From a virus, in the IMG/VR virus record IMGVR_UViG_3300020220_000041: DNA of 64,000 nt; one strand, given 5' to 3'. Made by a program: the position numbers and the translations under genes. Below the pieces are notes generated by a model that searched no databases, had not been told where the DNA came from, and worked only from the letters and a program-made list of their open reading frames with translations. Of the stretch, positions 935-50,689 are shown in pieces (position 1 is the first letter of the stretch; each line of letters opens with the position of its first letter).

Positions 935-1006
935 AGCTCCTCCAGGGAATCGAACCCTGCTCTGCGGCTTACAAAACCGCTGCATCGCCGACAATGCTTG
1001 AGGAGC
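935..1006 (-). tRNA. tRNA-Thr (anticodon TGT)
   Basis: Manual cloverleaf: acceptor GCTCCTC/GAGGAGC, D-arm GCAT..ATGC, anticodon stem GCGGT/GCCGC with loop TTTGTAA, T-arm CAGGG-TTCGATT-CCCTG. No CCA encoded. Confidence 0.7.
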
Positions 1007-1010
1007 AAAC

Positions 1011-1084
1011 TGGAGCTACCGGTGGGATTTGAACCCACGACCCCACCTTACCAAGGTGGTGCTCTACCACTGAGCCACGGCAGC
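1011..1084 (-). tRNA. tRNA-Thr (anticodon GGT)
   Basis: Acceptor GCTGCCG/CGGTAGC, D-arm GCTC-AGTGGTA-GAGC, anticodon stem CCACC/GGTGG with loop TTGGTAA, T-arm GTGGG-TTCAAAT-CCCAC. CCA encoded. Confidence 0.7.
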
Positions 1085-1089
1085 GTTGA

Positions 1090-1164
1090 TGGAGCCCACG
1101 GTCGGACTTGAACCGACGACCTGCGCGTTACGAGTGCGCTGCACTACCCCTGTGCTACGTGGGC
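1090..1164 (-). tRNA. tRNA-Thr (anticodon CGT)
   Basis: Acceptor GCCCACG/CGTGGGC, D-arm GCAC-AGGGGTA-GTGC, anticodon loop CTCGTAA (one A:C mismatch at the base of the stem), T-arm GTCGG-TTCAAGT-CCGAC. CCA encoded. Confidence 0.65.
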
Positions 1165-1169
1165 GTGGA

Positions 1170-1245
1170 TGGGGCTGGTGGTGGGATTTCAACCCACAGC
1201 CGCTTGGGTACGAACCAAGTGCTCCGGCAGTTGAGCTACACCAGC
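1170..1245 (-). tRNA. tRNA with anticodon CGT (a second Thr-CGT-like gene)
   Basis: Acceptor GCTGGTG/CACCAGC, D-arm GCTC..GAGC, anticodon stem CTTGG/CCAAG with loop TTCGTAC, T-arm GTGGG-TTGAAAT-CCCAC. CCA encoded. Its 3' 57 nt overlap the tail of HNH ORF 1189-1713. Confidence 0.6.
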
Positions 1246-1713
1246 ATGAAGTTCGCGATGACAGCACGCACACAGCAAAACACACTTGTCGATTTCAGCA
1301 CGAATGACGTCCCAAGAACGAGTTCTGGCGATGGCTTGGGAGACGTTGAAGGATTTGTCTCGTAGATGATGGAAGTCAAACGCCATCGCACAGCGTTGGT
1401 ATCCGCAGATCACACAACAACCTCCAGCGTAGGCCACAGCTTTCGCACCCAGAGCTATGCGTCTGGCTTTTGTCGTGCATGAGCTACAACGTCCTCCAGC
1501 CAAAACGGTGCGCCGCTGCGGCTTGGAGGTCCACAATCGCCCGCACTCTACACAGGGGGTCTTGTTACCTGGCGGGATGTGAAGTGGTTTCCGGTTGTTG
1601 ACTCCGAACGGCGAGCATTCGAGGCAATACTTCCGCGCGCTCAAGCAACGTTTCTTCCCGGCTACAGTGACCCATCCAGGAAACACCGCTGAACACTTTA
1701 CACAGGTCGGCAT
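1189..1713 (-). CDS. HNH homing endonuclease (paralog of 350-865)
   Basis: 174-aa ORF ending in CVLLCACCHRELHAG (HNH). It sits between tRNA genes. Confidence 0.75.
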   Translation of the reverse strand: MPTCVKCSAVFPGWVTVAGKKRCLSARKYCLECSPFGVNNRKPLHIPPGNKTPCVECGRLWTSKPQRRTVLAGGRCSSCTTKARRIALGAKAVAYAGGCCVICGYQRCAMAFDFHHLRDKSFNVSQAIARTRSWDVIRAEIDKCVLLCACCHRELHAGVAQLPEHLVRTQAAVG

Positions 1714-1760
1714 GCTATCTCCATGTCGCCTTCTACACTACAGCATTTTCAAAGAACTGA

Positions 1761-1836
1761 TGGTGGGGTCGGCGAGGTTCGAACTCGCGTCTCACGACTT
1801 AAAAGGACGGTGCTCTGCCACTTGAGCTACGACCCC
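1761..1836 (-). tRNA. tRNA-Lys-like (anticodon TTT), with an atypically weak anticodon stem
   Basis: Acceptor GGGGTCG/CGACCCC, D-arm GCTC-AAGTGGCA-GAGC, T-arm GCGAG-TTCGAAC-CTCGC, CCA encoded. The anticodon loop is CTTTTAA, but the flanking stem CCGTC/GTCGT pairs at only 3 of 5 positions. Confidence 0.5.
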
Positions 1837-1860
1837 GAGGTATGGGGCCGCAGGTCGGGT

Positions 1861-1935
1861 TGGTTGGGCGGAGAGGACTCGAACCTCTACTGCTGGGGTC
1901 AAAACCCAGTGTCCTGCCGATTAGACGACCACCCA
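1861..1935 (-). tRNA. tRNA-Gln (anticodon TTG)
   Basis: U1:A72 acceptor TGGGTGG/CCGCCCA (typical of bacterial tRNA-Gln), D-arm GTCT..GGAC, anticodon stem CTGGG/CCCAG with loop TTTTGAC, T-arm AGAGG-TTCGAGT-CCTCT. CCA encoded. Confidence 0.65.
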
Positions 1936-5230: not shown

Positions 5231-5662
5231 TCAGGAGAGAGCGCAGCCGTCGTTCTCAGCGAGACGCCAACGGAGAGCGGACCCGTTGTAGACCCCGACG
5301 AGTTGGACGCTGTCGTTCACATCGTTGAGGGTGACGATCGTGTTGCCGGCCACGTTGAAGGCGTTCGCCACGGTCACGACGCAATCCCCACCGTCCGTCT
5401 GGAAGTAGAGGACGATGCGCTGGTTCACGAAGGTGGGAGCCGCCAGGGTTCGGGTCTGGGCACCCGAGGTCACGATGGCGCAAGTCCCCGACCGAGTGAC
5501 CGGGATGGCCCCCCCGTTCCCCGGGTCGGTGATGATCGTCCCGACCATCGCGAGACCCAACTCGGCGAGAGCCGCCTCAACGGTGGTTCCCGTGAGGTAG
5601 GCCGCGGTGTCCGCAACACCCACGAGAGCCGCACCGCTGTGGGTGTGGACGAGGCCATACAC
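5231..5662 (-). CDS. Tandem paralog B of 4713-5201 (start uncertain)
   Basis: The homologous region starts near HSGAALVGVADTAAYLTG. The upstream part of track ORF 5231-6022 is a P/S/R-rich read-through. A GTG at 5662 or a TTG at 5761 are candidate starts. Confidence 0.45.
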   Translation of the reverse strand: MYGLVHTHSGAALVGVADTAAYLTGTTVEAALAELGLAMVGTIITDPGNGGAIPVTRSGTCAIVTSGAQTRTLAAPTFVNQRIVLYFQTDGGDCVVTVANAFNVAGNTIVTLNDVNDSVQLVGVYNGSALRWRLAENDGCALS

Positions 5663-5818
5663 GGGCTCGTCGTCTGGACAGCCCCCGTGGGTTGGCGCGT
5701 TCGTGTCGGGGCCGACTTCTGGGTTGATCGCGAGAAGGGAGTGCTCGGCCGTGCAACCCAAGGGCCGTGGGTCGAGGGACAGGGTGCCGAGGTGCTGACG
5801 GGCTACGGCTTCTAGGGC

Positions 5819-6002
5819 ACTACGAGAGCGACACGGACTCGCTCGATACCAACTGCCAGCGGAAGTTGGCTCCGACAAGCACCCCTTGAAGTAGGGCGAA
5901 GTCTCGAAGCCCGTTGAACGTGAGGGTGGTGTTGTTGGCCTTGTTGACGCCACTGGCGAACACGAACTGCCGTGTGCCGCCGAGGGTTGCTGAGCTGCTC
6001 GC
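5819..6002 (-). CDS. C-terminal segment of a gene split by the 6003-6476 insertion
   Basis: Directly left of the TIR, the minus strand reads ASSSATLGGTRQFVFASGVNKANNTTLTFNGLRDFALLQGVLVGANFRWQLVSSESVSLS followed by a stop. It is in frame with ORF 6474-6737 if 6003-6476 is removed exactly. Confidence 0.45.
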
Positions 6003-6476
6003 TGAAACCTACCTAAACCCACCCCAAAGTTAGGCGAACCTCAGGGACAGAAGCGATTCGCCTACAGGGCCCTTGCCAGGGCGTTGTCGGCGAAGGCTCC
6101 TGTCGAGGTCGTGAATCCAGCCTACACTTCGCAGGAATGCCCTTCCTGTGGTCATGTCTCCCGTGGGAATCGCACGGGAACGAAGTTCCAATGCCGTTCA
6201 TGCGGCAGGAAAGCTCACGCCGATTGGGTGGGAGCGTCCGGTGTTCTCAGACGTTCTGGGGATAACGACATCGGACGTGATGATCATCCACGGACCGTGA
6301 AAGCGACGTTGCGAAGGCGATGCCTGCTCCGCAGGCTCAGTCCCGCAAGGTCGTCATGCGAGCCCTCACCGTTGGGCCGGAGTCTTACTACCGAGGTACT
6401 CGTTCAGTCGGGGCTCGGCACAGGCTCGAACTTGGTGCCTGCTCACCTCCCTCTGGGTAGGTTTAGGTAGGTTTCA
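6003..6476. mobile_element. Miniature TIR-bounded element carrying a TnpB (IS605 OrfB) C-terminal remnant
   Basis: Perfect 17-bp terminal inverted repeats: TGAAACCTACCTAAACC at 6003-6019 and GGTTTAGGTAGGTTTCA at 6460-6476. The internal ORF has the TnpB zinc-finger/RuvC-III region. No obvious target-site duplication. Confidence 0.6.
6084..6470 (+). pseudogene. TnpB C-terminal fragment (truncated, lacks RuvC-I/II)
   Basis: NPAYTSQECPSCGHV...TKFQCRSCGRKAHADWVGASGVLRR matches the TnpB zinc ribbon plus RuvC-III. It is only 128 aa and has no N-terminal domains. Confidence 0.65.
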
Positions 6477-6737
6477 AGGAACGGTTGAGCCCACCACGAG
6501 AGAGAGCATCTGACCCGAGTAGATGGGGTTGGCGACCGTGGTGACCTCGGTTGGCCCCGCCGACCCAATCTCGATCGAGATGGCGGTGTTCACCGTCAGA
6601 GCGATGGAGTTGATGCCCGGATCGGGCATGTCTGCGGTGACGAGCGTCGTTCCGTAGATGCTCTCGAGGTAGGAGAGCCTCGAGAGGATCTGAAGGTAGC
6701 CGTGGCGGGGGATGGTCACGAACTCTGGACGCGGCAT
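6474..6737 (-). CDS. N-terminal segment of the gene split by the 6003-6476 element
   Basis: 87-aa ORF (MPRPEFVTIPRHGYLQ...LSLVVGSTVP) whose TGA stop lies inside the right TIR. The ATG is at 6737. Confidence 0.5.
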   Translation of the reverse strand: MPRPEFVTIPRHGYLQILSRLSYLESIYGTTLVTADMPDPGINSIALTVNTAISIEIGSAGPTEVTTVANPIYSGQMLSLVVGSTVP

Positions 6738-6774
6738 TCCGAAGTCCTCTCACCCGAGAGCCGCTATAAGCGGC

Positions 6775-8394
6775 TCAGGGAACGAGCCCGAACGTTTCGG
6801 CGACGGTGCGTCCGTCCGGCAGCCAGGCTTCCTTCAGGGCATCTCGAAGCTGGTCGAGAGCCTTCGTGGCCTGGTCCTGGTACTCGAAGTTGGCCCCGTG
6901 TGCGTACTTCCGCAGTTCCAGCAGGTACACGGCATCCCGAAGGCCCGCCTGGCCCCGCATCCGCACCCGGGTTCCGAGGGGGAGTGCGAGTCCCGCCTGC
7001 ATGAGGTTCCGGTCCGCCATGAACCGGTCGAACACCGCTGTGGAGCGGGCGAGCAGTTCGGGGACCTTGGCCTTCCCGATGTCGGACATGGGCTGGTAGT
7101 GGGAGTCGATCTGGATAGGGCCCGGCTCCGCCGTCAGGTGCTGTGCTCGGACCACCTGGAGGTGCCACGGGTAGGCCGTCCGCTGACGGTGCCAGTCTCG
7201 GGCCACGGCGAGCGAACACCGGAACGTGATGTTGACCTGAGCCAGCGTGTTGGCGAGGGGGTCGAGGTAGGTTTTCTCCCGAGGGCGAGAGAAGGACTGG
7301 ACATCCGACAACCCGCCCGATGCGGCCATCGTAATCTCCGCGTCAGGGCCGTCAGGAGCCGACGAGAACATCGTGGCGAGGTGCCCGGGGATCTGGGAGT
7401 CCGCCCCGTAGACAGCCTCGCGAAGGCCCATGCCCGCGAGTCCTGGGAGGGCTTGCTTGTAGGCTTCGGCGATGTCCTTCCAGACGGCTTCGACGGAGGC
7501 GGCTTTGGATTCCTGCGCTAGCAGGCTGCCGTCCCGGAGAACACGAGCGCGGTCCCGGAGGTGGGAGGTGTGGCCGCACCCGGTGGCGATGGTGCCCGGC
7601 AACGCCCAGCGAGCCCGGTCGAGGGCGGGTCGGAAGGGCTCCTTGTCTCCGATGCCGAGGGCCTTGCGGTTCTCCTCGCTGGAGAGGTGCTCCTTCCACC
7701 AGGCGACCTCGGCCTCGAAGACCTCGAACCAGTCGTTGTGGAGTTCGACGAGGTCGGGGTGTGGCTCGGACTTGTTCGGAATCACGGGGCCTGTGGCTTC
7801 GTCTCCGTCCCCGATCATCCGAAGCTGCGTGCCCGTGGAGGGGAGGTTGCACTCCCGAGCCATCGGCCAGTCGGCGTGCTGAACGGCCCGGGTCGAGAAC
7901 TCCTGACCCGTACAGAGCGGGGAGTCGAACAGGAGCCACGCGGTCAGCCAGGAGATGCCTTCGGCGAAGATTGTGGGGGAACCAGTCAACTCCATCACGG
8001 AACTGTGCCCGTAACGACCTACGAACTCGTCGAAGAACTTTTGGAATCGGGGATGAAGGGGGTACTCGCAGAGCCGATCCTCGGCGATTTGCCGAGCGTC
8101 GTACAGATGTCTCTCGTGGATTTCCTGAAGGACCTTGTCTTCGTACTGCAATGCCAGGGCGTCTTTCCAGGACAGTCCATGGATGTCCTTGTTCCCCGAG
8201 GCGACCCGATCGGTCAGCGGCCCATCCCAGTTGGCCTCGGCGATGGCATCCACGACCTGTCCGTATCGAACGCGGATCCCCCCGACAGGGGCTCTGGACG
8301 ACTGCGCGCATAGACAGGCGCGCACTTCTGGTGTAAGTTTGTGGTCGAGCCAGAAACAACCCGGGCCGACAGGGTGAAGGTACTTGAACACCAT
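6775..8394 (-). CDS. Tandem ThyX-like (flavin-dependent thymidylate synthase family) protein
   Basis: The C-terminal half has ThyX signatures: FRCSLAVARDWHRQRTAYPW (an RHR-like RQR) and LALPLGTRVRMRGQAGLRDAVYLLELRKYAHGANFEYQ (compare LPL..T..NARSL.NFL.LR..HAQWEIQ). The N-terminal half looks like a degenerate second ThyX domain. The start is uncertain (the track ORF extends to 8439). Confidence 0.5.
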   Translation of the reverse strand: MVFKYLHPVGPGCFWLDHKLTPEVRACLCAQSSRAPVGGIRVRYGQVVDAIAEANWDGPLTDRVASGNKDIHGLSWKDALALQYEDKVLQEIHERHLYDARQIAEDRLCEYPLHPRFQKFFDEFVGRYGHSSVMELTGSPTIFAEGISWLTAWLLFDSPLCTGQEFSTRAVQHADWPMARECNLPSTGTQLRMIGDGDEATGPVIPNKSEPHPDLVELHNDWFEVFEAEVAWWKEHLSSEENRKALGIGDKEPFRPALDRARWALPGTIATGCGHTSHLRDRARVLRDGSLLAQESKAASVEAVWKDIAEAYKQALPGLAGMGLREAVYGADSQIPGHLATMFSSAPDGPDAEITMAASGGLSDVQSFSRPREKTYLDPLANTLAQVNITFRCSLAVARDWHRQRTAYPWHLQVVRAQHLTAEPGPIQIDSHYQPMSDIGKAKVPELLARSTAVFDRFMADRNLMQAGLALPLGTRVRMRGQAGLRDAVYLLELRKYAHGANFEYQDQATKALDQLRDALKEAWLPDGRTVAETFGLVP

Positions 8395-9748
8395 GAAGAA
8401 CTCCTGGTCACTGCAAGAGGATGAGATCGTGAAGACCATCTACCCATACCGAGGTTCGGTTGGAGCGGCAGAGGCTCTCCGAGAGGCTGGGTTTCTTCGC
8501 ACACGCAAAGCAACCGGCTTCAGAGCGGGTGTGTTGGGCGTCCAGTTGCTTCCTGAAGGCCGTGCCCTTCTCAATACTCAACAAGCGGACCGTGCTCGTC
8601 AAACCGCCTCTGCGATGTGGGCCGCCATGTCAGATGAGGAGCGACGCCGTAGGTCGGATCTCACTCAGGAAACAAGCACTGCCTACTGGTCACGAGAAGG
8701 ATCCCGAGAGCAACACTCCGATAAGATGCGTGAAGTCCTGACTCAGCGGTGGGCCGCAATGACACCCGATGAACGTGAAGCCCACAGTCAGAAAATGAGG
8801 AGGGTGTGGGAGCTAAAGACACCAGAACAAAAGGAAGCACACGGCAAGCACACTTCGGAGAAAAACATCCGATTCTGGGCGTCCCTCTCTGACGTTGAGC
8901 GAGAACACCTCAAAATAGCCATTGGGGCTGGACAACAACGGCAGTGGGCGAATCTTTCCGAGGAGGAGAGACAACAGGCCCGCGAAAGACATCGGGTCGT
9001 CATGTTGGCGGTGTGGGCTTCCCTATCCGATATTGAGCGGGAGGCGTGGGCGGCCACAGGTACAAAGAACCTCAAGCGGGTTGACTGGGCCTCCTTGTCC
9101 GAGGAGGAAAGCCTTGCCCGTCGCCAAGTTCATGGAGAGCGGACAAAGGCAATGTGGGCATGTTTCACGGATGATGAGCGTGATCGCCTATGCCGTATTT
9201 GGAGTGAACAACTCAAGAAACGCTGGGCGGAAGGCTCTCCGGAGGATGTGGCCAAGATGCTCGCGACAGCACACCAGAACTCCCAACAGGCCATGCGAAA
9301 GAATAACCTAAAGAGCCCGAATAAAGCAGAGACCTCTGTTCGGGATTTTGCCATTCCAGGGCTGGAGATGACGTTGAGTGACCCCGAAGCTAGGGTGCTT
9401 CTGCGTCATCCTGATGGACGGAAGTGGCGGAAGAATCCGGACTTCGCTTTTGAGTGGCGCGGTGCCCGCTCAGATGGGAGCCCACGACTTGTTGTGGAGG
9501 TGATGGGTTTTGGGAAGTGGCACTCCAAAGACGAAGTACAGCATCTTGTCGATGAGTACGCCGTCAAAGGAACAGTGTGTCTCGTGGTAGATGCACGGGA
9601 TCTACAGAAGCATCCTGCCGAGGTGCGGACACGCATCGAAGCAGCTATTGCCGCTCTGGGTCCGGTTCAGCCGCGTCCTGTTCCGGGGTTGTGCAGCGGA
9701 ATGGTCCAGTCATGGATCCAGTCCGAAAAGCGGATCAACCCCAACTGA
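8393..9748 (+). CDS. Homing-endonuclease-like protein: Myb/SANT-like N-terminus, tandem W..LS.EER repeats and a C-terminal Vsr/DUF559 PD-(D/E)xK nuclease
   Basis: WSLQEDEIVKTIYPY (SANT-like). At least six repeats follow (MWAAMSDEERRRR, RWAAMTPDEREAH, RFWASLSDVEREHL and others). The C-terminus DFAFEWRGARSDGSPRLVVEVMGFGKWHSKDE matches the DUF559/Vsr fold. It lies on the plus strand inside a minus-strand block. Confidence 0.5.
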   Translation: MKNSWSLQEDEIVKTIYPYRGSVGAAEALREAGFLRTRKATGFRAGVLGVQLLPEGRALLNTQQADRARQTASAMWAAMSDEERRRRSDLTQETSTAYWSREGSREQHSDKMREVLTQRWAAMTPDEREAHSQKMRRVWELKTPEQKEAHGKHTSEKNIRFWASLSDVEREHLKIAIGAGQQRQWANLSEEERQQARERHRVVMLAVWASLSDIEREAWAATGTKNLKRVDWASLSEEESLARRQVHGERTKAMWACFTDDERDRLCRIWSEQLKKRWAEGSPEDVAKMLATAHQNSQQAMRKNNLKSPNKAETSVRDFAIPGLEMTLSDPEARVLLRHPDGRKWRKNPDFAFEWRGARSDGSPRLVVEVMGFGKWHSKDEVQHLVDEYAVKGTVCLVVDARDLQKHPAEVRTRIEAAIAALGPVQPRPVPGLCSGMVQSWIQSEKRINPN

Positions 9749-11498: not shown

Positions 11499-12038
11499 TC
11501 ACACCGTGCGGTGGACGCTTTTCTCAGAGGAGAACCCCTCTGGATACCGGGCCTTGAGCTTGGCCGTGTTGCGGTCACACACCAACTGAAGGCTTACGCC
11601 GGCCATTTCAGCGAGGCTGTCCGCCGAACGCAGAACCAGGCCCAGTCCGGAACGAATCCGTTCCACGTCGGCCGGGTGATTGTGCCCGACCACCTTCTTC
11701 AGGTAGTCCGTCACCTTGCCGGCGTTGACGGACAACTCGGTGGCGTGCCCCAGGAAATCGTCCTGTTCCATGGGGACAGCCTCCTTGGGGGGCATCTCGA
11801 TGCTCTCGAGGGAGATGCCCACGACAGAGGCGGTCTCGGCGATGTACCACATGCAGTCGCCGATCTCCTTGATAAGCACGTCCCGCTCGAAGGGTTGCGC
11901 GGCGTTGTGGTGGTACACGAGGTCAAGCACCTCGGCGGCCTCACCCGCCAGCCCCATCCCCGCGACGGCCAGGCGGAGGGTCTTGTCCGCCGTGTGGTTT
12001 GCGGTTCGCAGCGCGTTCGCCTGGTAGTCGTTCAGCAT
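11499..12038 (-). CDS. MazG-like nucleotide pyrophosphohydrolase
   Basis: ANALRTAN...LAVAGMGLAGEAAEVLDLV...EIGDCMWYIA is typical of phage MazG (the EExxE region). Confidence 0.65.
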   Translation of the reverse strand: MLNDYQANALRTANHTADKTLRLAVAGMGLAGEAAEVLDLVYHHNAAQPFERDVLIKEIGDCMWYIAETASVVGISLESIEMPPKEAVPMEQDDFLGHATELSVNAGKVTDYLKKVVGHNHPADVERIRSGLGLVLRSADSLAEMAGVSLQLVCDRNTAKLKARYPEGFSSEKSVHRTV

Positions 12039-12097: not shown

Positions 12098-13342
12098 ATG
12101 TCTGATGCGGCCCTTCGGCACCACCTCATCCGTCTGGCACACGCACATCCCGAAATGCGGCCCGCACTGCTTCCTTTGCTGAGGAGTGCGCGGGAGTTCC
12201 CGAACGAGGAAGCTCGGAAGAAGTACCTCGAGGACCATCCGAACGCGGACCCCGCCAACCACACCGTGGCGAAGCCGGACGACAAGGGCGATGAGGGTGG
12301 GGGCAAGGCCGCCCCGAAGAAGCCCAAGAAGCTGTTCTCGGACGATGAGATGAGCCTCCCCTCGGTGGCTCGTCAGTCTGTGAGCGACCCCGCCAAGCTG
12401 ATGGAGCAGGCCACGGAGGCGCATGAGCAGCAACTCAACTGGCTCAACCACGGCAAGGGTCTCGACAAGGCCGTGGGCGGCAAGGTGATTCGGTGCGATG
12501 AGATCGACTGCACCAAGGCTGGAGCGGTCGACTACGACCAGGAGGGTCCGATCATCGTCATCGGTCCCGTGAAGAAGAAGCACCGGGTCGAGGAGAAGGT
12601 GGAGAAGGACTACGACGGAGACTGGTCTCGCGTCGGCGATCTGGTGCGCTCCACGGTGGCCTTGGACTCGATGGACCAGGTTGAGGAGGTCATGGACAAG
12701 CTGCGGGCCTCTGGGCTCAAGCTCGCCCGTCCTCCCAAGGACCGTTTCGCGAACCCGACGGACGCGGGCTACCGCGACCTGATGATGAACGTGGTGTACC
12801 CCAATGGGCACATAGGGGAGCTTCAGATCCACCTGAAGCCGATTCTGAAGGCCAAGGAAGAAGCTCACGGAGCCTACGAAGAAGTCAGCGCGATCGGAGC
12901 CAAGGCCAAGAAGGAAGGGCGCACCGACTTGACCGACGAAGAAGCCGCCAAGGTGGACGAGGCGATGCAGAAGATGCGCGACATCTACGAAGCCGCGTGG
13001 AAGAAGTCGACCGCCGCGAAGGGTGGCAAGACCGCAGCCGGAGGGCTCAAGCGCATGGCAGCCAAGGTGCAGTACTTCGACCTCGACGGGATGCCCGCAC
13101 TGTGGGAAGCCAAGAAGTTCCCGGTTCGCCTCTCACCGAAAGGCAAGGAGGTCGTGATCTACGAGTTGGACGAGTTCTTCAACCAGGCCACGCCCATCTC
13201 GAAGGACGCCTATGACAAGCTCGTGAAGGAGAACGCCCCGAAGGAGAAGAAACAGAAGGAAGGTTCCCTTCGGCTGGCGACTATCCGTCTGGCACAGACG
13301 AACTCACAGCTTCGCCCACACCTCCTCGCCCTGCTGAAGTAG
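12098..13342 (+). CDS. RelA/SpoT-fold (RSH-like) nucleotidyltransferase with RLAHAHPE terminal motifs
   Basis: GYRDLMMNVVYPNGHIGELQIHLKPI matches the RSH synthetase motif GYxSxHxxV...EIQIRT. Upstream, KHRVEEKVEKDYDGDWSRVGDLVRSTV matches the G-loop/ITDLxGxR region. N-terminus MSDAALRHHLIRLAHAHPEMRPALLPLL and C-terminus LRLATIRLAQTNSQLRPHLLALLK. The ATG is at 12098 with a GAGG RBS. Confidence 0.5.
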   Translation: MSDAALRHHLIRLAHAHPEMRPALLPLLRSAREFPNEEARKKYLEDHPNADPANHTVAKPDDKGDEGGGKAAPKKPKKLFSDDEMSLPSVARQSVSDPAKLMEQATEAHEQQLNWLNHGKGLDKAVGGKVIRCDEIDCTKAGAVDYDQEGPIIVIGPVKKKHRVEEKVEKDYDGDWSRVGDLVRSTVALDSMDQVEEVMDKLRASGLKLARPPKDRFANPTDAGYRDLMMNVVYPNGHIGELQIHLKPILKAKEEAHGAYEEVSAIGAKAKKEGRTDLTDEEAAKVDEAMQKMRDIYEAAWKKSTAAKGGKTAAGGLKRMAAKVQYFDLDGMPALWEAKKFPVRLSPKGKEVVIYELDEFFNQATPISKDAYDKLVKENAPKEKKQKEGSLRLATIRLAQTNSQLRPHLLALLK

Positions 13343-14458
13343 GTGCCCATGTTCGACGCACATCGAGTCGCATTCCGCTACCTGGCCTCCCGAGATGTCG
13401 AGGCGGCGGGCACCGAAGCGGACATCACCCGGAACCTTCCCACGTTCCTTCAGGCCATGGGCAACCTCTCTGCCGCCATCATGGACAACCAGGCGAAGGG
13501 CAAAGCGGGCGACTCGTTGAGTGCTCGCTACGACGCCAACGGGCCTTGGGTGGCGTTGATTCGGGCGGGGGGTCCGTTGGTGGACGGCATTCTGTCCACC
13601 CGGAGCATCCCGGCTCGTGACGCCAAGGGGATGGAGATGGCGTACCGGCTGATGCACAACAGCCGCCGGATGCCCCAGGATGTCTACAAGTGGTGGGACG
13701 CCAACCTCAAGCGGCTCGACCTGATCACACAGGCAGCGAGGACGTGGGCTCCCAAGCAAGAGGGTTCGGACGAACTGTTCACCCTCGGGTCCTTCAAGGT
13801 CCACAACACGGTGGGGGCCAAGGGGGCCGAACTCGACTCCCTCAAGAACGCCATCGAGCGTGTCGAGAACCTGAGCCGGGCGAACCCCATCCCCGGGTTC
13901 TCTCGGGTCGTGTACGGGGACATCCACGTCGTCGCCCGCATCACGAAGGCCCACCACGCTGCCTGGTACTTCCCCGGAGATGACAGCCTCTACCTACGTC
14001 GGTCCGCGACCACAGGAATCGACGAGGTTCACGCGATGATCCACGAGTTGGGCCATCGTTTCTGGCACAGGTTCGCTCCCGAGGACGCGAAGAAGGAATG
14101 GCAGCGGCACCATTGGCAGGTCGAGGGCAGGCCCGTCGAGGTGGACCTCCCCCAGGTCGGCGACCCAATCCCGGTGAAGATCCCCAAGATCAAGGAGTAC
14201 CCGACCATCACCCGGATCGAGGGCGGTCGGTACTACTACGAGGTCGACATCGGTGGCGGAGAGATGTGGAGGAACTCGCTCTCCGCCATGAAGGTGCGGG
14301 AGTTCTTCACCACGCAACAGAGGGCGGCGAAGAACTTCCCGACCGCCTACTCGGCCCAGAGCGCCGAGGAGCACTTCTGTGACGCCCTGGCGTTGTTGGC
14401 GATGGGGAATCTCACGGCACAGCACGAGATTCCCTTCAACGCCATCTGGAAGCGGTGA
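13343..14458 (+). CDS. Putative HExxH zinc metallopeptidase
   Basis: 371 aa containing VHAMIHELGHRFWH. Confidence 0.45.
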   Translation: MPMFDAHRVAFRYLASRDVEAAGTEADITRNLPTFLQAMGNLSAAIMDNQAKGKAGDSLSARYDANGPWVALIRAGGPLVDGILSTRSIPARDAKGMEMAYRLMHNSRRMPQDVYKWWDANLKRLDLITQAARTWAPKQEGSDELFTLGSFKVHNTVGAKGAELDSLKNAIERVENLSRANPIPGFSRVVYGDIHVVARITKAHHAAWYFPGDDSLYLRRSATTGIDEVHAMIHELGHRFWHRFAPEDAKKEWQRHHWQVEGRPVEVDLPQVGDPIPVKIPKIKEYPTITRIEGGRYYYEVDIGGGEMWRNSLSAMKVREFFTTQQRAAKNFPTAYSAQSAEEHFCDALALLAMGNLTAQHEIPFNAIWKR

Positions 14459-14461
14459 ACC

Positions 14462-15538
14462 TCAGTCGATGCCGCACACCGTCTTGAGGATGCGGGCGGT
14501 CACGACGTAGGGGTCGACGTTCGCACAGGGGCGGCGGTCCTCGAGGTACCCGGAGCCCTTCTCCTTCACGGAGCGGGGGATGCGGATGCTCGCCCCCCGG
14601 TTCGCGATGCCCCAGCGGAACTCCTTGTACGAGCAGGTCTCGTGCTTCCCGGTGAGTCGAGCCTCGATGCCATCCCCGTAGCAGGCGATGTGCTCCGCGT
14701 GCTTCTCCCCGAGCTTCTCGCAGGCGGACTTGATGGCGTAGATGCCGAACTTCTGCTGGGACTCCCGATTGGCCTTCTCGTCCGTGCCGCCGAAAGAGGC
14801 GGGGTCAAGCCGCATCGCCGCCGTCGAGAAGTTGGTGTGGGCACCGGCACCGTTCCAGTCACCACGGGCGGGCTTCGGGTCGAGGGAGGCGTTGATCTCG
14901 TGGTCCTCTCCGAGCCGGTAGAGGAGCCAGCGGGCCAGCCACAGGTGGTCCGCCACCGTGAGCGGGTCCGAGGTCCCGATCTGGAACTCCCACTGGCCGG
15001 GCATGACCTCGGCGTTGGTCCCGTAGAGCAGGAGCCCGGCGTCGAGGCACGCCTTCGTGTGGGCCTCGATCAGAGGGCGACCAACCACCTCGTCGGCTCC
15101 GACGCCGCAGTAGTAGGGGCCCTGGGGAGCCGGGTAGCCGTTGTCCGGGAAGCCGAGCGGACGGGAGCCCTTGAACAGGGTGTACTCCTGCTCGATGCCG
15201 AACCAGGGCTCTTCGACAGCGGCACCCGCGTCGAGGACACGACGAAGCTCGGCCCGGGTGTTCGACTTGTGCGGGGTGACCTCGTCGCCGTTGAGGACTT
15301 CGCACAGGACGAGGTAGTTCGGGACGCCTCGAATCGGGTCCGTGACGACGCGAACGGGCTTCAGAGCGCAGTCAGAGTCGTGACCTTCGGCCTGGTACGT
15401 GGACGAGCCGTCGAAGCCCCACACGGGGAACTTGTCCGGGGTCGGCTCCCCCTCGATCTCCACAATCCGGGTCTTGGAACGTAGCTTCTGGGTGGGCGCG
15501 GCTCCGTCCATCCAGATGTACTCTGCCTGTGAACGCAT
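14462..15538 (-). CDS. glnII: Glutamine synthetase type II
   Basis: YIWMDG...LRSKTR, GIEQEYTLF, GPYYCGVGA, AEVMPGQWEFQIG, GAHTNFST and ASIRIPR. The length of 358 aa is typical of GSII. Confidence 0.8.
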   Translation of the reverse strand: MRSQAEYIWMDGAAPTQKLRSKTRIVEIEGEPTPDKFPVWGFDGSSTYQAEGHDSDCALKPVRVVTDPIRGVPNYLVLCEVLNGDEVTPHKSNTRAELRRVLDAGAAVEEPWFGIEQEYTLFKGSRPLGFPDNGYPAPQGPYYCGVGADEVVGRPLIEAHTKACLDAGLLLYGTNAEVMPGQWEFQIGTSDPLTVADHLWLARWLLYRLGEDHEINASLDPKPARGDWNGAGAHTNFSTAAMRLDPASFGGTDEKANRESQQKFGIYAIKSACEKLGEKHAEHIACYGDGIEARLTGKHETCSYKEFRWGIANRGASIRIPRSVKEKGSGYLEDRRPCANVDPYVVTARILKTVCGID

Positions 15539-23626: not shown

Positions 23627-24958
23627 ATGTCTGACCGTCTCCTGCGTGCTGGTCTGATCCGGCTGGCCCATGCCCACCCCGAGTTTCGGGCCGACATTCT
23701 GCCGCTGGTGACGGCCACCTACGAGCAGGACGTGGCGCAAGACGCGGACCCGAACTCCAAGGATCAGTCGAAGGCCGACTACTGGAACGGCCTCGCCCCC
23801 CAGAAGCCTGCGATCGACGAGCCCGCCCTCCCTCCCAAGACGGCAGCGGGGGCCATTGGGCCAAGCCTCGCCAAGATGAAGAACGACACCAATTTGTCGT
23901 TCTCCGATGGTGCAAACACGGTGTTTGCCCATGTCTGGTTCGACACCGGGGTGGCGCAGTACGACCGGGGTGGGGTTGCGCCTGACAGCGGTGAGTGGGA
24001 CGTCATGGTCAGCACCAGTCCCGACCGGTTGAACCTCAACCCTCGCGGAAAGGAGTTGGGCCGTCAGACTTTCCGTTACGCAGAGGCGCGTTCCCGCCCC
24101 ATCGTTCTTGACGCCGCCGAGAAGTACATCGTCACGATGCTTGCGCGGCACCGCTCCAAGACGGCGAAGCTCATGTCCCGTCAGGAGACCCTTCTCCAGA
24201 AGTACATGGAGACGGCGGCTCGGAGCGGGGGACGGGCGGCCACGGGCTGGGACGAGTTGCCCGATTCCGTCCGCAAGGCCCTCCGTGCGGTGAAGGATCA
24301 GGAGACGTTGTGGATGGACGTGGACCGCTGGTTCATGGACAACGCTCCTCCAGGTGGACTCCGTTGGGCCTCGGGCGAGGGTCAGTCGGCGGACGACTAC
24401 TGGAATGGGCTCGAGCCGAAGAAGCCCGCCATCGACGAGCCTGCTCTCCCGCCGAAGCAGGCCGCGTCCAAGACGGCGTTTGAAATCAAGATTGAGTACA
24501 AGGTTCGAGGCGGCCCGTGGCAGACCAAGCAGTTCAGGAATGGCCGTGAGTTCGAGGCTTGGTCCGACAAGATGCAGAAGGTACCCGGCTTCGAGATCAA
24601 CCCCGATTCTGTCGATGGTCACTCCGAGGAGTATCTCCGCAGCCTCCTCGCCAAGAACCAGTCGAAGGCCGCCGCGTGGGAGAACCTCCCGCCGGGATGG
24701 ACGCAGGAGTCGGTTCAGAGCTTCTGGGACAGCCTCACGGGCGACGTGAAGCACAAGGTCACCAAGTGCATGAAGGAGATGGAGGGCAAGGTGGACAACA
24801 CCGGAGCCTTCTGTGGCTCCCTCGGTGCCGCCGTGGGCTACCGGGCGGCCTCGTCTGGGAAGAACGCCTCTCTGTTTCGGAAGGCGGCCATCCGGGTTGC
24901 TCACGAGAACCCCGAGCATCGGGCGGCCATCCTCCCCTCCCTCTCGAAGAAGGCTTGA
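23627..24958 (+). CDS. RLAHAHPE-motif protein with internal DYWNGL...PAIDEPALPPK repeats
   Basis: N-terminus MSDRLLRAGLIRLAHAHPEFRADILPLV and C-terminus AAIRVAHENPEHRAAILPSLSKKA. A ~35-aa internal repeat occurs twice. Confidence 0.55.
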   Translation: MSDRLLRAGLIRLAHAHPEFRADILPLVTATYEQDVAQDADPNSKDQSKADYWNGLAPQKPAIDEPALPPKTAAGAIGPSLAKMKNDTNLSFSDGANTVFAHVWFDTGVAQYDRGGVAPDSGEWDVMVSTSPDRLNLNPRGKELGRQTFRYAEARSRPIVLDAAEKYIVTMLARHRSKTAKLMSRQETLLQKYMETAARSGGRAATGWDELPDSVRKALRAVKDQETLWMDVDRWFMDNAPPGGLRWASGEGQSADDYWNGLEPKKPAIDEPALPPKQAASKTAFEIKIEYKVRGGPWQTKQFRNGREFEAWSDKMQKVPGFEINPDSVDGHSEEYLRSLLAKNQSKAAAWENLPPGWTQESVQSFWDSLTGDVKHKVTKCMKEMEGKVDNTGAFCGSLGAAVGYRAASSGKNASLFRKAAIRVAHENPEHRAAILPSLSKKA

Positions 24959-25025: not shown

Positions 25026-25748
25026 ATGTCTGACGCCGCTCTTCGCAAGCAACTGATTCGCCTCGCCCATGCGAACCCCGAGATGCGCCCTCACATCCTC
25101 CCCCTGCTCCGCGAGGCTGGGACGGTGAAGAAGGCACACGGGCCGGTCGCCATCCAGGGGCCGCAGGTGATGCTGTACGCCATCGACGCCGAGAAGAACC
25201 AGTCGAAGTTCTACGAGATGACGGTGGTTCCGTTCGGCACCACCGTGGACCGGGCTCGTCCGACCGTGAAGAAGGACAAGGACTTCCGCCGGATGGGCAT
25301 GGGCGGCTACACGCTCGCGAAGCGGTGGGGCCGTCTCACGGACACGGGCGGCATCTCCGGCCGGTTCGACGGCATGGACGAGTTCTACGACAGCGAGGCG
25401 GCGGCTCTCGGTGCGATGCGGGCCACCAAGGCCGACAAGATGCGTGGGTCGGGTTCGGCCGCGTACAAGGATGTGTCGGACACCCGGGAGTACCCGATCG
25501 GCCTCGGGGCCGCAGGGTTCGGTTGGGGCGGCCAGGCGGCCTGTGCCTACATCCCCGAACTGGCGGAACTCCACACGGCGATCGAAGCCAACCTCAAGAA
25601 CGTCACGCGCCTCAAGGCATACGTGGCGGCCATCGCTCGACGGGACTCGTCGATGGGTAAGAAGCTCGACCTGATGCTCGAGCCGCTCATCGAGCAGATG
25701 TCGTCCATCGACACCTACCTCGAGATGCAACTCTCCGAGTGCCGGTAA
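25026..25748 (+). CDS. WGR-domain protein with N-terminal RLAHANPE motif
   Basis: N-terminus MSDAALRKQLIRLAHANPEMRPHILPLL. SKFYEMTVV...YTLAKRWGRLTDTGG matches the WGR domain. Confidence 0.5.
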   Translation: MSDAALRKQLIRLAHANPEMRPHILPLLREAGTVKKAHGPVAIQGPQVMLYAIDAEKNQSKFYEMTVVPFGTTVDRARPTVKKDKDFRRMGMGGYTLAKRWGRLTDTGGISGRFDGMDEFYDSEAAALGAMRATKADKMRGSGSAAYKDVSDTREYPIGLGAAGFGWGGQAACAYIPELAELHTAIEANLKNVTRLKAYVAAIARRDSSMGKKLDLMLEPLIEQMSSIDTYLEMQLSECR

Positions 25749-25773: not shown

Positions 25774-28700
25774 ATGAAGTCGTCGACCAATCGAGTTGCC
25801 AGTCGGTGGATGCAAGCCGAGAACACGGACGAGCCGTCCGAGTCTGTCGGTGACGTGTCCCCCGGTGCCTTCGTGGACCTCATGGCGTTCTTCCAGGCGG
25901 TCGCGGCCTACCGTGCGCTGAAAGGAGACGAGGACCCCCAGACGCGGCGTGCGGCTCCCCTGGTTCGTCGTTTCCAGAGCGATCTGGTGGCGGGAGCGAA
26001 CCGGTACTTCGCACCCCTGACCGACGACACGGCCTTCGCCGGGTTGCGGAATGAGGTTCGGACGCTGACTCGGGGGACTCGTGGTCTCGACCACGCCTCC
26101 GAGCAAGCGGCGGCTCTCCGGAAGATTCTGTGGACCCTGCATCCGAAGCCGCAGGTGGTCCGCGAGGTGTTCTCGGACTCGCGTTCCTACACGGCGGTGA
26201 TGCGTCTGGCGGCCTTGGCCGCCACCGACTCTGCGGGAAGCCTGCTGAACAGCGTGGCGTCCCTCACCCCGGCCTCCCGGCTTCAACTGACCCGGAAGTG
26301 GATCCGTGACGCGGCGGAGGCGGCCAACGTGGCCCCCTCCAAGGTGGAGACGGTGCTGTCGGATGCGGAGAACGCTCGCCACCTGGGTGAGGATCTCCAC
26401 ACGGTCGAAGTCCAGTTGGCGACTGCGGACCCGGTGTCCCAGCGTGCCGCCGACCTCCAGGTCGAGAAGCAAGCCATCATCGACCAGATCGAGAAGGTGG
26501 TCGCGGACAGCCCCTCTCCGGCGGTGGTGTTGTCGGCGGCGGCCTCGGCTACGACACAGCCCCAGGACTACGCCACGGCCACGGCGAAGCGGTCCAGGCT
26601 CTCGCCAGACCAAGAGCGGGCGATGATGGCCCGTGGGAAGGCGATCATCGCGGCGGGTGCGGGTTCTGGAAAGACCGCAACCCTGGCCTCGAAGGTGGCC
26701 TACCACGTCAACGAACTTGGCGTCCCTCCTGGAGCGGTCATCGCGACCTCGTTCTCCCGGAAGTCGGCCGCTGAGCTTCGGCGGCGGATTGCCAAGTACG
26801 GGGCCGACATCCCGGACTCGGCGAGCACAGGGTTCGGCACCACTCACTCGGTCGCGGGCAAGCTCCTCCGGGAGTATGGCGGCGGTGGCCGGAATGGGAT
26901 GAAGAGCTACCAGCAGACCGACCTGGTTCGGTTGGCGATGGAGCAGGTCCAGATGGTCGGACCTGGTGTCGCGCCTCCGCCTCCCACGAGTCTGTTCGAC
27001 GTGTCCTCGGACGCCCCGGTCGGCATCAAGTTCCGCGATGCCATCCAGATGGCCTTCGATCGCCGCCACAAGCTCGACCCCTGGTCGAAGGGGTTCATCG
27101 AGTCGTTCTACAACCCGAGCGACCAGTGGTACGCCCGGACGATGCGGGCCACGGGGAACCTGACGAATCCGCATGGGCTGTCCGACAAGCAGCGTGAGAT
27201 CGTCAAGAAGGTCTTCGGGCGGTTGGGCATCAACTACTCGCCGACCACGGACCCCGGCCTGGCTCCCGCGCAGACCCAGCCCGCTCCTCGAGTGGCGGCC
27301 AAGGACAAGAACAAGGGGCTCCGCGAGAAGTACAAGTTCTTCTCCCAGCCCGCGAACGAGTGGTTCAACCTCGGCCTCGAACTGGTCGAGGAGGACGGTC
27401 AGGGCAACAAAAAGCCCATCCCGACCGGGTTCTTCAAGAACGCCATCTCCAAGTTCAAGGGTCGGGCGGTGTCGCCCTCCGAGGCTTGGGCGCTCTCCAA
27501 CGGGTCCCCCGAGGCGGCGGTGTACGCGGCCTATGAGTGGCTGAAGGGGTCGAAGGGCGAGACGGACTTCCAGGGTCTCGGCGACTTCGACGACGTGCTC
27601 CTCGACGTGTCGAAGATGCTCCTGTCGTCTCCTCGGGTGAGGCAGCAGGTCCAGTCGCGGTTCAAGGTGGCCCTCGTGGACGAGGCCCAGGATCTCAACC
27701 GGGCACAGCACCTCATGTTCGGCCTCATCACCGGGTTCGTGGACCCGGCGAAGGTGCCCAACATCGCCACCGCGAAAAAGATGGGCGAACTCGCCAAGGA
27801 TGACGGCTCGATGACGGCCGACACCTACTGCTTCATCGGCGACGACAAGCAGTGCGTGGAAGCCAATTCCTTGGTTGAGACTCAGAATGGGCCTCGACGT
27901 GTCGGAGACCTCGCTCCTGGCGATGAGGTACTTGCCTACCGCAATGGGAAGGTGCTTCTGCAGGCTGTACGCCATGTCGTCCCCTCGTCCTGGACATGGG
28001 GCTACAAAGTCACGATGGAGTCTGGGCAAACGCTGACGATGAGCCCCAACCACAAGCTCTGGGCAACCGAGCCTCAGACCGAAGATGGTCAGGTGGCCGT
28101 GTACCTGATGTATCGAAAGGACATGGGGTTCCGCGTTGGGATCACCAACAAGGGCAAGGTGGGCTCCGAGGAGGACTACCTGAACTCTTACGGGGGTCGA
28201 GTCTTCCTGGAGAAGGCCGAACGTCTGTGGGTTCTGGACATCTGCTCTAGCCGGGAGGAGGCTCTGCTGACAGAGACGGATCTCTCCCTGACCTACGGTA
28301 TCCCCACCACAGTGTTCAACGGGGAACACCGTGATCTCAATCAGGATCGGATCAACACCATCTTCCAGAAGCATGGGAAGAATGGAGGCCGCCTGTTGGA
28401 GGAGCGAAACCTCTCTTTTGATCTGCCCCATTGGATGAGCCAGAGCTACACAAAGCATGGCCGGGACCGGCACACTCTTCAGTTCTTGGCCCACAGCACG
28501 AAGGGCTCTCAGGTCGCGATGGAGTGGGTGGGTGACAAGTTCGACAAGGTGTTGCAGGATGTGAGCTTCAACATCACGGGTGAGCGCCGTCGGCTACGGC
28601 GGTGGTTCGGAAACTACCGTGAGGGCCTCGCTCATGCCGAGGAGGTGGCTCGTCGCACGGGTGCCAATCTGTCCTACCGGATGGCTACCCCCGAAGGAAC

Positions 28701-35997: not shown

Positions 35998-36500
35998 AGG
36001 GCGGATAACCTACGCAGTTCCGCTGAAATCAGCCGATCTTGGCTTGCGTACTGTGCCTCGAACCCGCTCGCCTTTTCGTCGTCTTCCCGCCACCAGCGAG
36101 GCGCTGGCGAGAACCCGTGCTCATCCGCAATCCACTGCTCCTGACGTTCGGTCGGAGTGGGCCACTCCGTTGCAAGGAGGATGGGTTCCGAGCGTTGGTT
36201 GTCGAGGTTGAGCCAGGGGACAGACTTCAGGATGCCCTCGCCTTTGAAGGGTCGGCGTTTCCCGACTCGGAGGGCCATCCACTTGAGGACCGCATGTTCC
36301 CAGTCGTGGGGGCTGTTGAACCCGAGTTGGAGGGGGCCGTGTCCGTACTTGATGCCCCCTTGCTGAACGAGCCCCTGGAAACGGGGCCGAAGTCCCGTCG
36401 CCAGCACTTCGGACCCATCCCTGAGATGCTTCTCGGCGAAGGCCACCATCTCCCCGAGAGCCGCTTCAGAGCGGCAGGTGAAGGAGAAGCTGTAGCCCAT
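35979..36500 (-). CDS. Hypothetical protein
   Basis: The real part begins [26 protein letters not shown]. Its ATG overlaps the asnS stop as TGATG. Confidence 0.5.
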
Positions 36501-37840: not shown

Positions 37841-37858
37841 GAAACACCTCAACGCCCA

Positions 37859-50322: not shown

Positions 50323-50689
50323 GGCTTGCCGTGCTCATTTTCGAGATTGCGGGGTTCACTCCACCACCTGGAGCCGAATCGTCTCGAACGCCAAACGTAG
50401 GGGACTACCTGTCACCCTCACCCCCAACGAAGTCTGGGACCTGCTGGTTCAACAGGAGTTCCGATGCAGGTTGTCGGGCTTGCCTATCCAGGAGCGCGAA
50501 AACGCCTCACTGGATCGTATCGACAACACCAAGGGCTACGTCGCCGGCAATGTGCAGTGGGTCCACAAGGACATCAACAGGATGAAGAACACGCACACGC
50601 AGGCATACTTCACGGACCTGTGTAGGGCCGTGGCAGAGGTTTCCCATGCGACAGATGTTGGACAGGTTGCTGCTCGGCGCACAGCCTGA
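50186..50689 (+). CDS. HNH endonuclease (AP2-HNH type)
   Basis: SLDRIDNTKGYVAGNVQWVHKDINRMK. Confidence 0.65.
   Translation: MFGKWVALSEGPPSANGRQLLCRCACGTEKLVGLKALESGKSGKCEACRAHFRDCGVHSTTWSRIVSNAKRRGLPVTLTPNEVWDLLVQQEFRCRLSGLPIQERENASLDRIDNTKGYVAGNVQWVHKDINRMKNTHTQAYFTDLCRAVAEVSHATDVGQVAARRTA

Follow-up and report, generated by a model that had tools for sequence, protein, structure and literature searches.

In a 64,000-nucleotide stretch of viral DNA (IMG/VR virus record IMGVR_UViG_3300020220_000041; we call the whole stretch the window), the open reading frame (ORF) at positions 12098-13342 is predicted, from its conserved residues and a structural model, to encode a RelA/SpoT-fold 3'-pyrophosphokinase with all of its catalytic residues intact. 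The enzyme forms a new branch of the phage-delivered Tas1/Apk-like effectors that are already known among the RelA/SpoT homologs (RSH), and this branch is missed by Pfam, NCBIfam, and PADLOC. Unlike the type of enzyme, the pair of tags at its ends is new: they belong to a tag system that is widespread and previously undescribed. So far, the only (p)ppApp synthetases of phages to have been characterized are MuF fusions of temperate phages. The family that we describe would add stand-alone forms from large environmental phages.

A predicted RSH enzyme with conserved catalytic residues

The gene and its parts are as follows (aa, amino acids; AF2, AlphaFold2 model; pLDDT, predicted local distance difference test; HMM, hidden Markov model):

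12098..13342, plus strand: tagged RelA/SpoT-fold (Tas1/Apk-like) pyrophosphokinase gene, 414 aa, predicted from the ORF, the Tas1 matches, AF2, and Foldseek
12113..12181, plus strand: N-terminal tag motif 1, LRHHLIRLAHAHPEMRPALLPLL, aa 6-28, predicted helix-turn-helix (motif HMM 35.2 bits; AF2 helices 3-16 and 18-28)
12188..12277, plus strand: N-terminal tag motif 2, EFPNEEARKKYLEDHPNADPANHTV, aa 31-60, identified by conservation and followed by a K/G/E-rich linker
12380..13027, plus strand: RSH catalytic core, about aa 95-310 (conserved columns; alignment to Tas1 residues 247-376)
13061..13237, plus strand: family-specific C-terminal beta-rich domain, about aa 322-380 (AF2 strands 324-367 with pLDDT >90; kept in the family consensus)
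13268..13336, plus strand: C-terminal tag copy, LRLATIRLAQTNSQLRPHLLALL, a second predicted helix-turn-helix (motif HMM 34.5 bits)

The ORF starts with the ATG at 12098, which has a GAGAGG-type ribosome-binding site upstream, and stops with the TAG at 13340-13342. A sequence-only reading of the window had reported an RSH synthetase signature in this ORF, and nucleotides 12767-12841 do translate exactly to GYRDLMMNVVYPNGHIGELQIHLKP. The core contains syn1 (K159/R163/K167), syn2 (D181-x-x-R184-S-T), syn3 (G224-Y225-R226-D227), and syn4 (E241-L-Q243-I-H245), followed by H257/Y260. Across 84 homologs, with identities down to about 30%, K159, K167, D181, R184, R226, E241, and Q243 are invariant. 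These include the catalytic D/E/Q residues (D181, E241, and Q243), on whose retention in an alignment the sequence-only reading depended. R163 (79/84), Y225 (83/84), H245, K247, H257, and Y260 are nearly invariant.

The profile searches that had been suggested along with that reading gave a mixed picture. Against Pfam's RelA_SpoT family (PF04607), the protein scores 18.6 bits (E = 0.0024, profile positions 3-105 of 113), which is below the gathering score of 27 bits. It has no match in NCBIfam, and none in PADLOC at E <= 1, including the models for CapRel and other toxic small alarmone synthetases (toxSAS). A homolog from Bordetella phage PHB04, discussed below, clears the PF04607 gathering score (30.6 bits), and 10 of the homologs listed have a precomputed match to this family. 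Also, there is a single sequence match in the PDB, to Tas1 (6OX6), with E = 2.8e-6 for the protein alone and E = 3.7e-8 for a profile of the 84 homologs. When the AF2 model (pLDDT 90) is compared to solved structures with Foldseek, Tas1 is the best match and CapRel is second, followed by RelP, Rel, and RelQ, each with a probability of 1.00. All 28 of the PDB matches at E <= 1e-3 are structures of RSH proteins or small alarmone synthetases (SAS), with target-normalized template modeling (TM) scores of at most 0.63. Because of the profile match to the PDB, the fold, and the homolog that passes Pfam's threshold, we place the protein in the RSH family, as the sequence-only reading had done.

Pfam finds only the RSH region in this protein, and no N-terminal delivery domain (PAAR or MuF). 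When we compared the family's profile to the GTDB genomes, one contig of a metagenome-assembled genome matched.

Terminal tags on unrelated proteins

The protein begins with MSDAALRHHLIRLAHAHPEMRPALLPLL and ends with LRLATIRLAQTNSQLRPHLLALLK, which is a diverged copy. The sequence-only reading had described "RLAHAHPE termini"; because the C-terminal copy has diverged, this is literally true for the N-terminus only, while the idea that the ends are a peptide-like conserved module is borne out. The consensus of the tag is LRxxxIRLAHxxPxLRxxLLPLL (23 aa), often followed by EFPxxEAxxKYLxxHPxADxxxHxV. Among 90 representatives of the RSH family, motif 1 is present in about 16 and motif 2 in 47, and 33 lack both. 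Motif 2, in which two His are invariant, is also present in many unrelated tagged proteins.

To survey the tag, we used the first 60 residues as the query for an exhaustive HMMER search (E <= 1e-3), which found it in at least 508 representative protein clusters. Of the best 146 of these 508, 110 have the tag at the N-terminus and 20 have it at both ends; the RSH core is present in just 2 and the peptidase of the neighboring gene (see below) in none. Long tagged proteins have the tag repeated between domains, with the highest number, five, in a protein of 1,780 aa. The cargos that we can recognize include Zeta toxin, HEPN, GNAT, pentapeptide repeats, WGR, and a P-loop kinase, and most cargos match no family. 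The tag itself is not covered by any family in Pfam, PHROG, or NCBIfam, a word-indexed protein search with the 60-aa tag gave no match, and the consensus has no match in the GTDB genomes. A full-text search of the literature for the tag strings found no paper.

The window encodes two more tagged proteins:

23627-24958, plus strand: second tagged gene, with tags at both ends (motif HMM 38.6 and 39.8 bits) and no match in Pfam, PHROG, or NCBIfam
25026-25748, plus strand: third tagged gene, with an N-terminal tag (motif HMM 47.2 bits) and a weak WGR-like cargo (Pfam WGR, E = 5.9e-4, sub-threshold)

WGR recurs in tagged proteins elsewhere, with E = 9e-11. The protein encoded at 23627-24958 also contains an internal duplicated segment, DYWNGL.P.KPAIDEPALPPK. 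We considered whether the tags are recent DNA repeats or scars of recombination, and we rejected this: among the window's five copies, only the protein sequence is conserved, not the DNA.

The complete 485-kb genome of an uncultured phage (LR745208.1) encodes 11 tagged ORFs and two solo homologs of the peptidase, and it has no homolog of the RSH family. Its tagged ORFs usually start with MT(T)LRSKLIRLAH, so that the tag lies immediately past the start codon. At 350193-352533 of the same genome, an ORF for an HD_4-like hydrolase lies just upstream of two consecutive tagged ORFs whose cargos match nothing that we tested.

The tags thus define a large set of unannotated phage proteins, which probably share a common fate.

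Replacement of the core between the tags

Two genes flank the RSH and peptidase genes on the opposite strand:

11499..12038, minus strand: MazG-like NTP pyrophosphohydrolase, divergent from the RSH gene (Pfam MazG, E = 1.8e-7; PHROG 229, E = 3.7e-33)
14462-15538, minus strand: GlnII-type glutamine synthetase, adjoining the peptidase gene downstream (NCBIfam equivalog, 502 bits versus a cut-off of 500)

A related contig (L006) has retained MazG and encodes a peptidase with 88% identity, and between them lies a different protein of 410 aa that has only the N-terminal module and the C-terminal tag in common with the RSH protein. At the DNA level, the window aligns to this contig from 10142 to 12268 (at 75%) and from 13254 to 15002 (at 84%). 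The 985 nucleotides between the two aligned blocks are exactly the RSH core, which is replaced in L006. Since the breakpoints in the DNA lie at the tags and the core is swapped, we conclude that the tags delimit exchangeable cargo, as in polymorphic-toxin loci. Such swaps at the tag boundaries are a way for these phages to exchange effectors. As for the replacement itself (L006/P0091), it has a DGHHRW motif that recalls ParB/Srx. Searches of Pfam and the PDB did not confirm that it is a ParB protein, so we describe it only as a different cargo.

The adjacent metallopeptidase

The second gene comprises:

13349..14458, plus strand: solo zincin-like metallopeptidase gene, 369 aa (alternative GTG start at 13343)
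about 13415-13744, plus strand: N-terminal four-helix bundle of the peptidase (AF2)
about 13775-14449, plus strand: zincin domain with an SH3-like insert (AF2)
14360-14401, plus strand: Glu-bearing helix SAEEHFCDALALLA, which contains E343 and H344

The sequence-only reading had placed this gene at 13343-14458, with an HELGH motif. The motif is there (14042-14056), but the ATG at 13349 is a likelier start than the GTG at 13343: it is preceded by AGGTG, and it is the start called on an identical contig from the JGI. The gap between the RSH and peptidase genes is 0-6 nucleotides, with no terminator-like site between them.

The peptidase protein has no match in sequence searches of Pfam, PHROGs, NCBIfam, PADLOC, or the PDB. 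Nevertheless, its assignment as an HExxH metallopeptidase holds up. Across 58 homologs, H234, E235, H238, R239, W253, and H257 are invariant, and E343 and H344 are nearly so. The AF2 model (pLDDT 90) has the layout of a zincin: a four-helix bundle, a three-stranded sheet (strands within 192-219), the HExxH helix (226-243, with HELGH), an SH3-like insert, and the Glu helix (341-353, with EEHF). The modeled protein is structurally similar to solved zincins. From the conserved residues and the model, we predict that the second gene encodes a solo zincin-type metallopeptidase. It differs from the minimal gluzincins (ATLF-like proteins, MtfA, and SprT/Wss1) in having the N-terminal four-helix bundle and the SH3-like insert between the HExxH and Glu helices, and at the sequence level it matches none of the peptidases in Pfam or the PDB. 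The four-helix bundle resembles domains that bind helical peptides, although this resemblance is generic.

Homologs of the peptidase with 35% identity over nearly its full length (aa 18-362) are domains of proteins of 2,100-3,100 aa that are encoded directly after portal genes. These large proteins also contain InPase, PolyA_pol, 2H, and TopoIB domains. At L033 (3272-6580), a portal-like gene lies beside a polyvalent protein and reaches 1,103 aa through a LAGLIDADG-type insert, which is probably an intein or a homing endonuclease. We also note that both the RSH family (P0006) and the peptidase family (P0140/P0157) have metagenomic members with an N-terminal fusion to HAD_SAK_1 (PF10307, "Swiss Army Knife RNA repair").

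The pairing of the RSH and peptidase genes is lineage-specific. The order MazG (minus strand), RSH (plus), peptidase (plus), and GlnII (minus) is kept only in close relatives of the window (L001-L005). In IMG/VR, 13 of 14 RSH loci have no peptidase within 10 kb (the other has a distant homolog about 3 kb away), and all 37 peptidase loci lack an RSH gene. So the peptidase, which the sequence-only reading had called a partner, is not conserved next to the enzyme beyond close relatives. It also follows that the two genes are not a toxin-antitoxin pair. The tight coupling of the genes might seem to favor a module for toxin-antitoxin function, abortive infection, or superinfection exclusion, with the HExxH protein as the antitoxin or immunity protein for a toxSAS, and toxSAS modules are common and some are carried by phages (PMC7229694). 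But adjacency is limited to the window's lineage, the peptidase of L006 follows a cargo that is not an RSH, and the peptidase retains an invariant catalytic site and has no match in PADLOC. We view such a pair as very improbable, and we rejected the peptidase as an antitoxin on the basis of its locus context.

MazG remains beside the cassette in all of L001-L006, even where the cargo has been swapped, so it is not tied to the RSH gene. The idea that it is a dedicated counter-enzyme or immunity protein is unsupported, as it is also absent from other RSH loci. It is possible that it counters the RSH enzyme.

Relatives of the enzyme and known systems

Only one homolog of the RSH protein comes from a cultured phage: Bordetella phage PHB04 encodes it as a protein of 493 aa (39.6% identity, E = 8e-29). 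In PHB04 (vB_BbrM_PHB04, MF663786.1; L058), the locus at 5545-9555 encodes a portal protein, the 493-aa "hypothetical protein," a 69-aa ORF, and an HD_4 hydrolase whose annotation reads bifunctional (p)ppGpp synthetase/hydrolase. PHB04 and two related loci (L016 and L011) have a small alarmone hydrolase (SAH) of the HD_4 type next to the RSH gene, and in PHB04 and L016 the order is portal, RSH, (69-aa ORF), SAH. The apk2-iapK-aph1 loci have the same kind of order (PMC12226406, PMC10083569). The PHB04 locus is thus an unrecognized apk2-iapK-aph1-like module in a cultured myophage.

The nearest characterized relatives of the RSH protein are the (p)ppApp-making toxins Tas1/Apk1 and the phage protein Apk2. 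Tas1, the (p)ppApp synthetase of the type VI secretion system (T6SS) of Pseudomonas aeruginosa, shares the K..R...K..DY.GD...DL.R.T and GE.Q motifs with the window protein, although they are just ~19-25% identical over ~110-135 residues. Tas1 is delivered by PAAR and the T6SS and neutralized by Tis1, and both features are absent from the window gene. Like Apk2 (PMC10083569, PMC12226406), the window gene encodes a Tas1-like RSH core in a phage, with adenosine-type syn2 and syn4, and its relatives in PHB04 and L016 lie right after the portal gene and before the small ORF and the HD_4 hydrolase. Unlike Apk2, the window protein has no MuF domain, its core lies between predicted helix-turn-helix tags, it has an extra C-terminal beta domain, and its syn3 is GYRD instead of the GY.G.N of Apk. 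Also, Apk2 comes from temperate phages, whereas the window has no nearby IapK/Aph1 and derives from a large, apparently lytic-type phage that is known from metagenomes.

Distant homologs of the RSH protein and of the peptidase occur as domains of polyvalent proteins. For the RSH protein, these are proteins of 4,426 and 4,519 aa that also contain ddrB-ParB, ART-PolyVal, SNF2, and Eco57I-type methylase domains. In 2017, Iyer et al. (PMC5512222) described RelA/SpoT, DdrB-ParB, and InPase as phage-specific domains of polyvalent proteins and the zincin metallopeptidase (MPTase) as the hub domain; they predicted that the MPTase processes the polyvalent chain, and such proteins were inferred to enter the virion and to reach the host along with the DNA. 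So the window genes are unbundled, stand-alone versions of two polyvalent domains. They differ in that the domains are separate genes, and each effector, instead of being part of a covalent chain, has a terminal tag of its own, and the tag is not among the Pfam families that were derived from that work. The sequence-only reading had considered the combination of an alarmone synthetase, a putative targeting peptide, and a peptidase to be unusual. It is less so than that reading held, as RelA/SpoT and zincin MPTase domains both recur in polyvalent proteins (PMC5512222) and MuF-fused (p)ppApp synthetases have been characterized (PMC10083569, PMC12226406).

The tags themselves call for another comparison. 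Viruses and protein compartments are known to use short capsid-targeting or cargo-loading peptides: examples are the capsid-targeting sequence (CTS) of the internal proteins of T4, the C-terminal helix-turn-helix of the P22 scaffold, and the cargo-loading peptides of encapsulins. Like the tags, these are short, terminal, and common to the unrelated cargos of one virus or compartment, and the tag's predicted helix-turn-helix with its conserved Arg recalls the coat-binding domain of the P22 scaffold. Unlike these peptides, to which it has no sequence relationship, the tag is found N-terminally, C-terminally, and between domains.

Proposed role and alternatives

According to Paulet et al. (PMC12226406), the adenosine 3'-pyrophosphokinases (Apk) can be distinguished from the guanosine RSH at syn2 (R.T versus A.R), syn3 (G.N versus S.H), and syn4 (.H versus IR). 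In our RSH family, syn2 is D-x-x-R-S/A-T/S and syn4 is E-x-Q-I/L-H, both of which are of the adenosine type (R184-S-T186 and I-H245 in the window). Also, the conserved basic residues R216, R226, K247, and K253 surround the base-stacking Y225. Alarmone synthetases carry such a basic patch, and it is smaller in FaRel2, which targets tRNA (PMC11782079). The gene product would probably turn ATP into a toxic alarmone. Given the types of syn2 and syn4, the basic residues, the SAH neighbors, and the apk2-iapK-aph1-like order of related loci, we favor the synthesis of (p)ppApp from ATP, with the 3'-pyrophosphorylation of tRNA as the main alternative and (p)ppGpp as a minor one.

We propose, with about even confidence, that the RSH gene encodes an exchangeable and probably virion-delivered adenosine 3'-pyrophosphokinase effector. 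The enzyme would move the beta-gamma pyrophosphate of ATP onto the 3'-OH of an adenosine substrate, most likely ATP or ADP, which would yield (p)ppApp. This would drain ATP and block purine synthesis in the infected cell, and the host would be intoxicated or reprogrammed. The tags would act as a sorting or packaging signal, by which the tagged effectors would be placed in the virion and enter the host together with the DNA; they would be stand-alone equivalents of polyvalent or MuF-fused effectors, in which the tag replaces the covalent linkage. The peptidase might mature, trim, or release the tagged effectors, as was proposed for the MPTase domains of polyvalent proteins. What suggests packaging to us is that homologs are encoded right after the portal, that on one contig (L045) the portal gene is followed by a small, fully tagged ORF and then by a solo peptidase, and that the range of cargos is effector-like. 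The packaging step and the peptidase's action on tagged substrates are the weakest links of the proposal, and of the two the peptidase step is the weaker.

Several observations weigh against this proposal. The RSH and peptidase genes of the window sit amid auxiliary genes (MazG, GlnII, and a phosphatase) and outside any structural module, and we did not see a portal or capsid gene in the 64 kb. Nor did we detect an SAH or a Tis1/IapK-type immunity gene in the window: the best tblastn match to an SAH has E = 0.2 and lies inside the SNF2 gene. Of about 26 non-redundant loci with a peptidase homolog, about 5-6 have a tagged gene as its immediate neighbor, a modest or weak enrichment, and the polyvalent proteins that contain the peptidase domain mostly have no tags nearby. 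In LR745208.1, the tagged genes are dispersed over 485 kb instead of being clustered at the portal. Many members of the RSH family lack motif 1, so the tag is not needed for the function of the enzyme. Finally, syn3 of the window protein is G-Y-R-D227-L-M229 (G-Y-R-D-x-M/L in the family), which is neither the "GxN" of Apk nor the "SxH" of RSH, so the choice of acceptor is not settled by the sequence.

If the acceptor were the 3'-CCA adenosine of tRNA, as it is for CapRel, FaRel2, and PhRel2, then an enzyme with the same fold would shut down the host's translation instead of draining its ATP. We think that this is unlikely. CapRel is the second-best structural match, but searches with the sequence or the profile reach Tas1 only, there is no match to CapRel or toxSAS models in PADLOC, and we saw no pseudo-Zn-finger antitoxin domain. 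The adenosine types of syn2 and syn4 do not distinguish a nucleotide from A76 of a tRNA, and the additional beta domain that is conserved at the C-terminus could serve in RNA binding or regulation; on the other hand, the basic residues around Y225 resemble the patch that binds the phosphates of a nucleotide (PMC11782079). Similarly, the PHB04 locus mirrors apk2-iapK-aph1, even though promiscuous SAH antitoxins can also reverse the pyrophosphorylation of tRNA (PMC11782079). We consider it less likely still that the enzyme makes (p)ppGpp and so sets off a stringent-like response in the host. An RSH fold with complete catalytic motifs would suit this role, and the RelA/SpoT domains of polyvalent proteins were first predicted to be makers of alarmones (PMC5512222), but syn2 and syn4 are of the adenosine type, the guanine-reading S-x-H of syn3 is absent (by the signatures of PMC12226406), and Tas1 is the nearest relative by sequence.

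A separate question is where the enzyme acts. It might not be packaged at all, and might instead work inside the infected cell as an early or middle host-takeover enzyme or as a regulatory synthetase that is balanced by MazG. This seems possible to us, though we do not expect it. The location of the gene in an auxiliary region, in a two-gene island on the plus strand that is divergent from MazG, would fit such a role, as would the dispersal of the tagged genes of LR745208.1 and the many tagged proteins that are small and have no recognizable enzymatic cargo. A balancing role for MazG is harder to reconcile with its persistence where the RSH cargo has been replaced, and relatives of both the RSH protein and the peptidase are encoded after the portal or lie inside polyvalent proteins, which fits better with delivery, as does the gene order of L045. 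If the enzyme is not packaged, then the tags might mediate assembly on a hub, localization to a phage compartment, regulated turnover, or autoinhibition, which we mention with similar reserve.

Returning to virion delivery, we can extend the proposal to the tags in general, but only tentatively. The tag might be a widespread sorting signal of large and huge phages that loads a changing set of stand-alone effectors (RSH, Zeta toxin, HEPN, GNAT, WGR, and pentapeptide cargos along with many that match no family), with the four-helix bundle of the peptidase recognizing the tag and the peptidase removing it ("tag-and-trim"). With the same reservation, the destination might be the capsid or another compartment that is built by the phage, and phages would have in this system a substitute for covalent polyvalent proteins. 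Should the tag prove to be a signal for packaging or sorting, it would become possible to list from sequence alone the effectors that huge phages inject or target to compartments, and the tag would offer a route to load foreign cargo into these phages.

Gene neighborhood and origin of the window

The window has a GC content of about 63% and dense coding on both strands, and it seems to be a portion of a large phage. A gene for an SNF2 helicase also lies within it. Other features are:

935-1935, minus strand: cluster of six tRNAs (Thr x4 with three different anticodons, Lys-TTT, and Gln-TTG)
6775-8439, minus strand: ThyX-like domain at the C-terminus of a 554-aa protein
25774-30306, plus strand: UvrD/REP-type helicase, 1,510 aa, with a Hint/intein-like insert at about aa 692-1035
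36500-37852, minus strand: class II aminoacyl-tRNA synthetase (tRNA-synt_2, E = 3e-70)
50646-51941, plus strand: fusion of HD and AAA_33/polynucleotide kinase
58956-61031, plus strand: flotillin/SPFH protein
62127-63164, plus strand: ADP-ribosylglycohydrolase

The genes for the aminoacyl-tRNA synthetase, ThyX, the HD/polynucleotide-kinase fusion, flotillin, and the ADP-ribosylglycohydrolase are a typical auxiliary set of very large phages. The ORF at 8384-9748 (plus strand) encodes a 454-aa protein that matches no family and contains about eight tandem repeats of the W(A/S)xLSxEER type.

Relatives of the RSH and peptidase genes are found on viral contigs from IMG/VR of 40-497 kb, and the GlnII gene is kept in the sister contigs. 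A JGI contig from a freshwater (Lake-type) metagenome carries a 100% identical copy of the ORF at 12098-13342, and a 166-kb contig carries a copy that is 86% identical.

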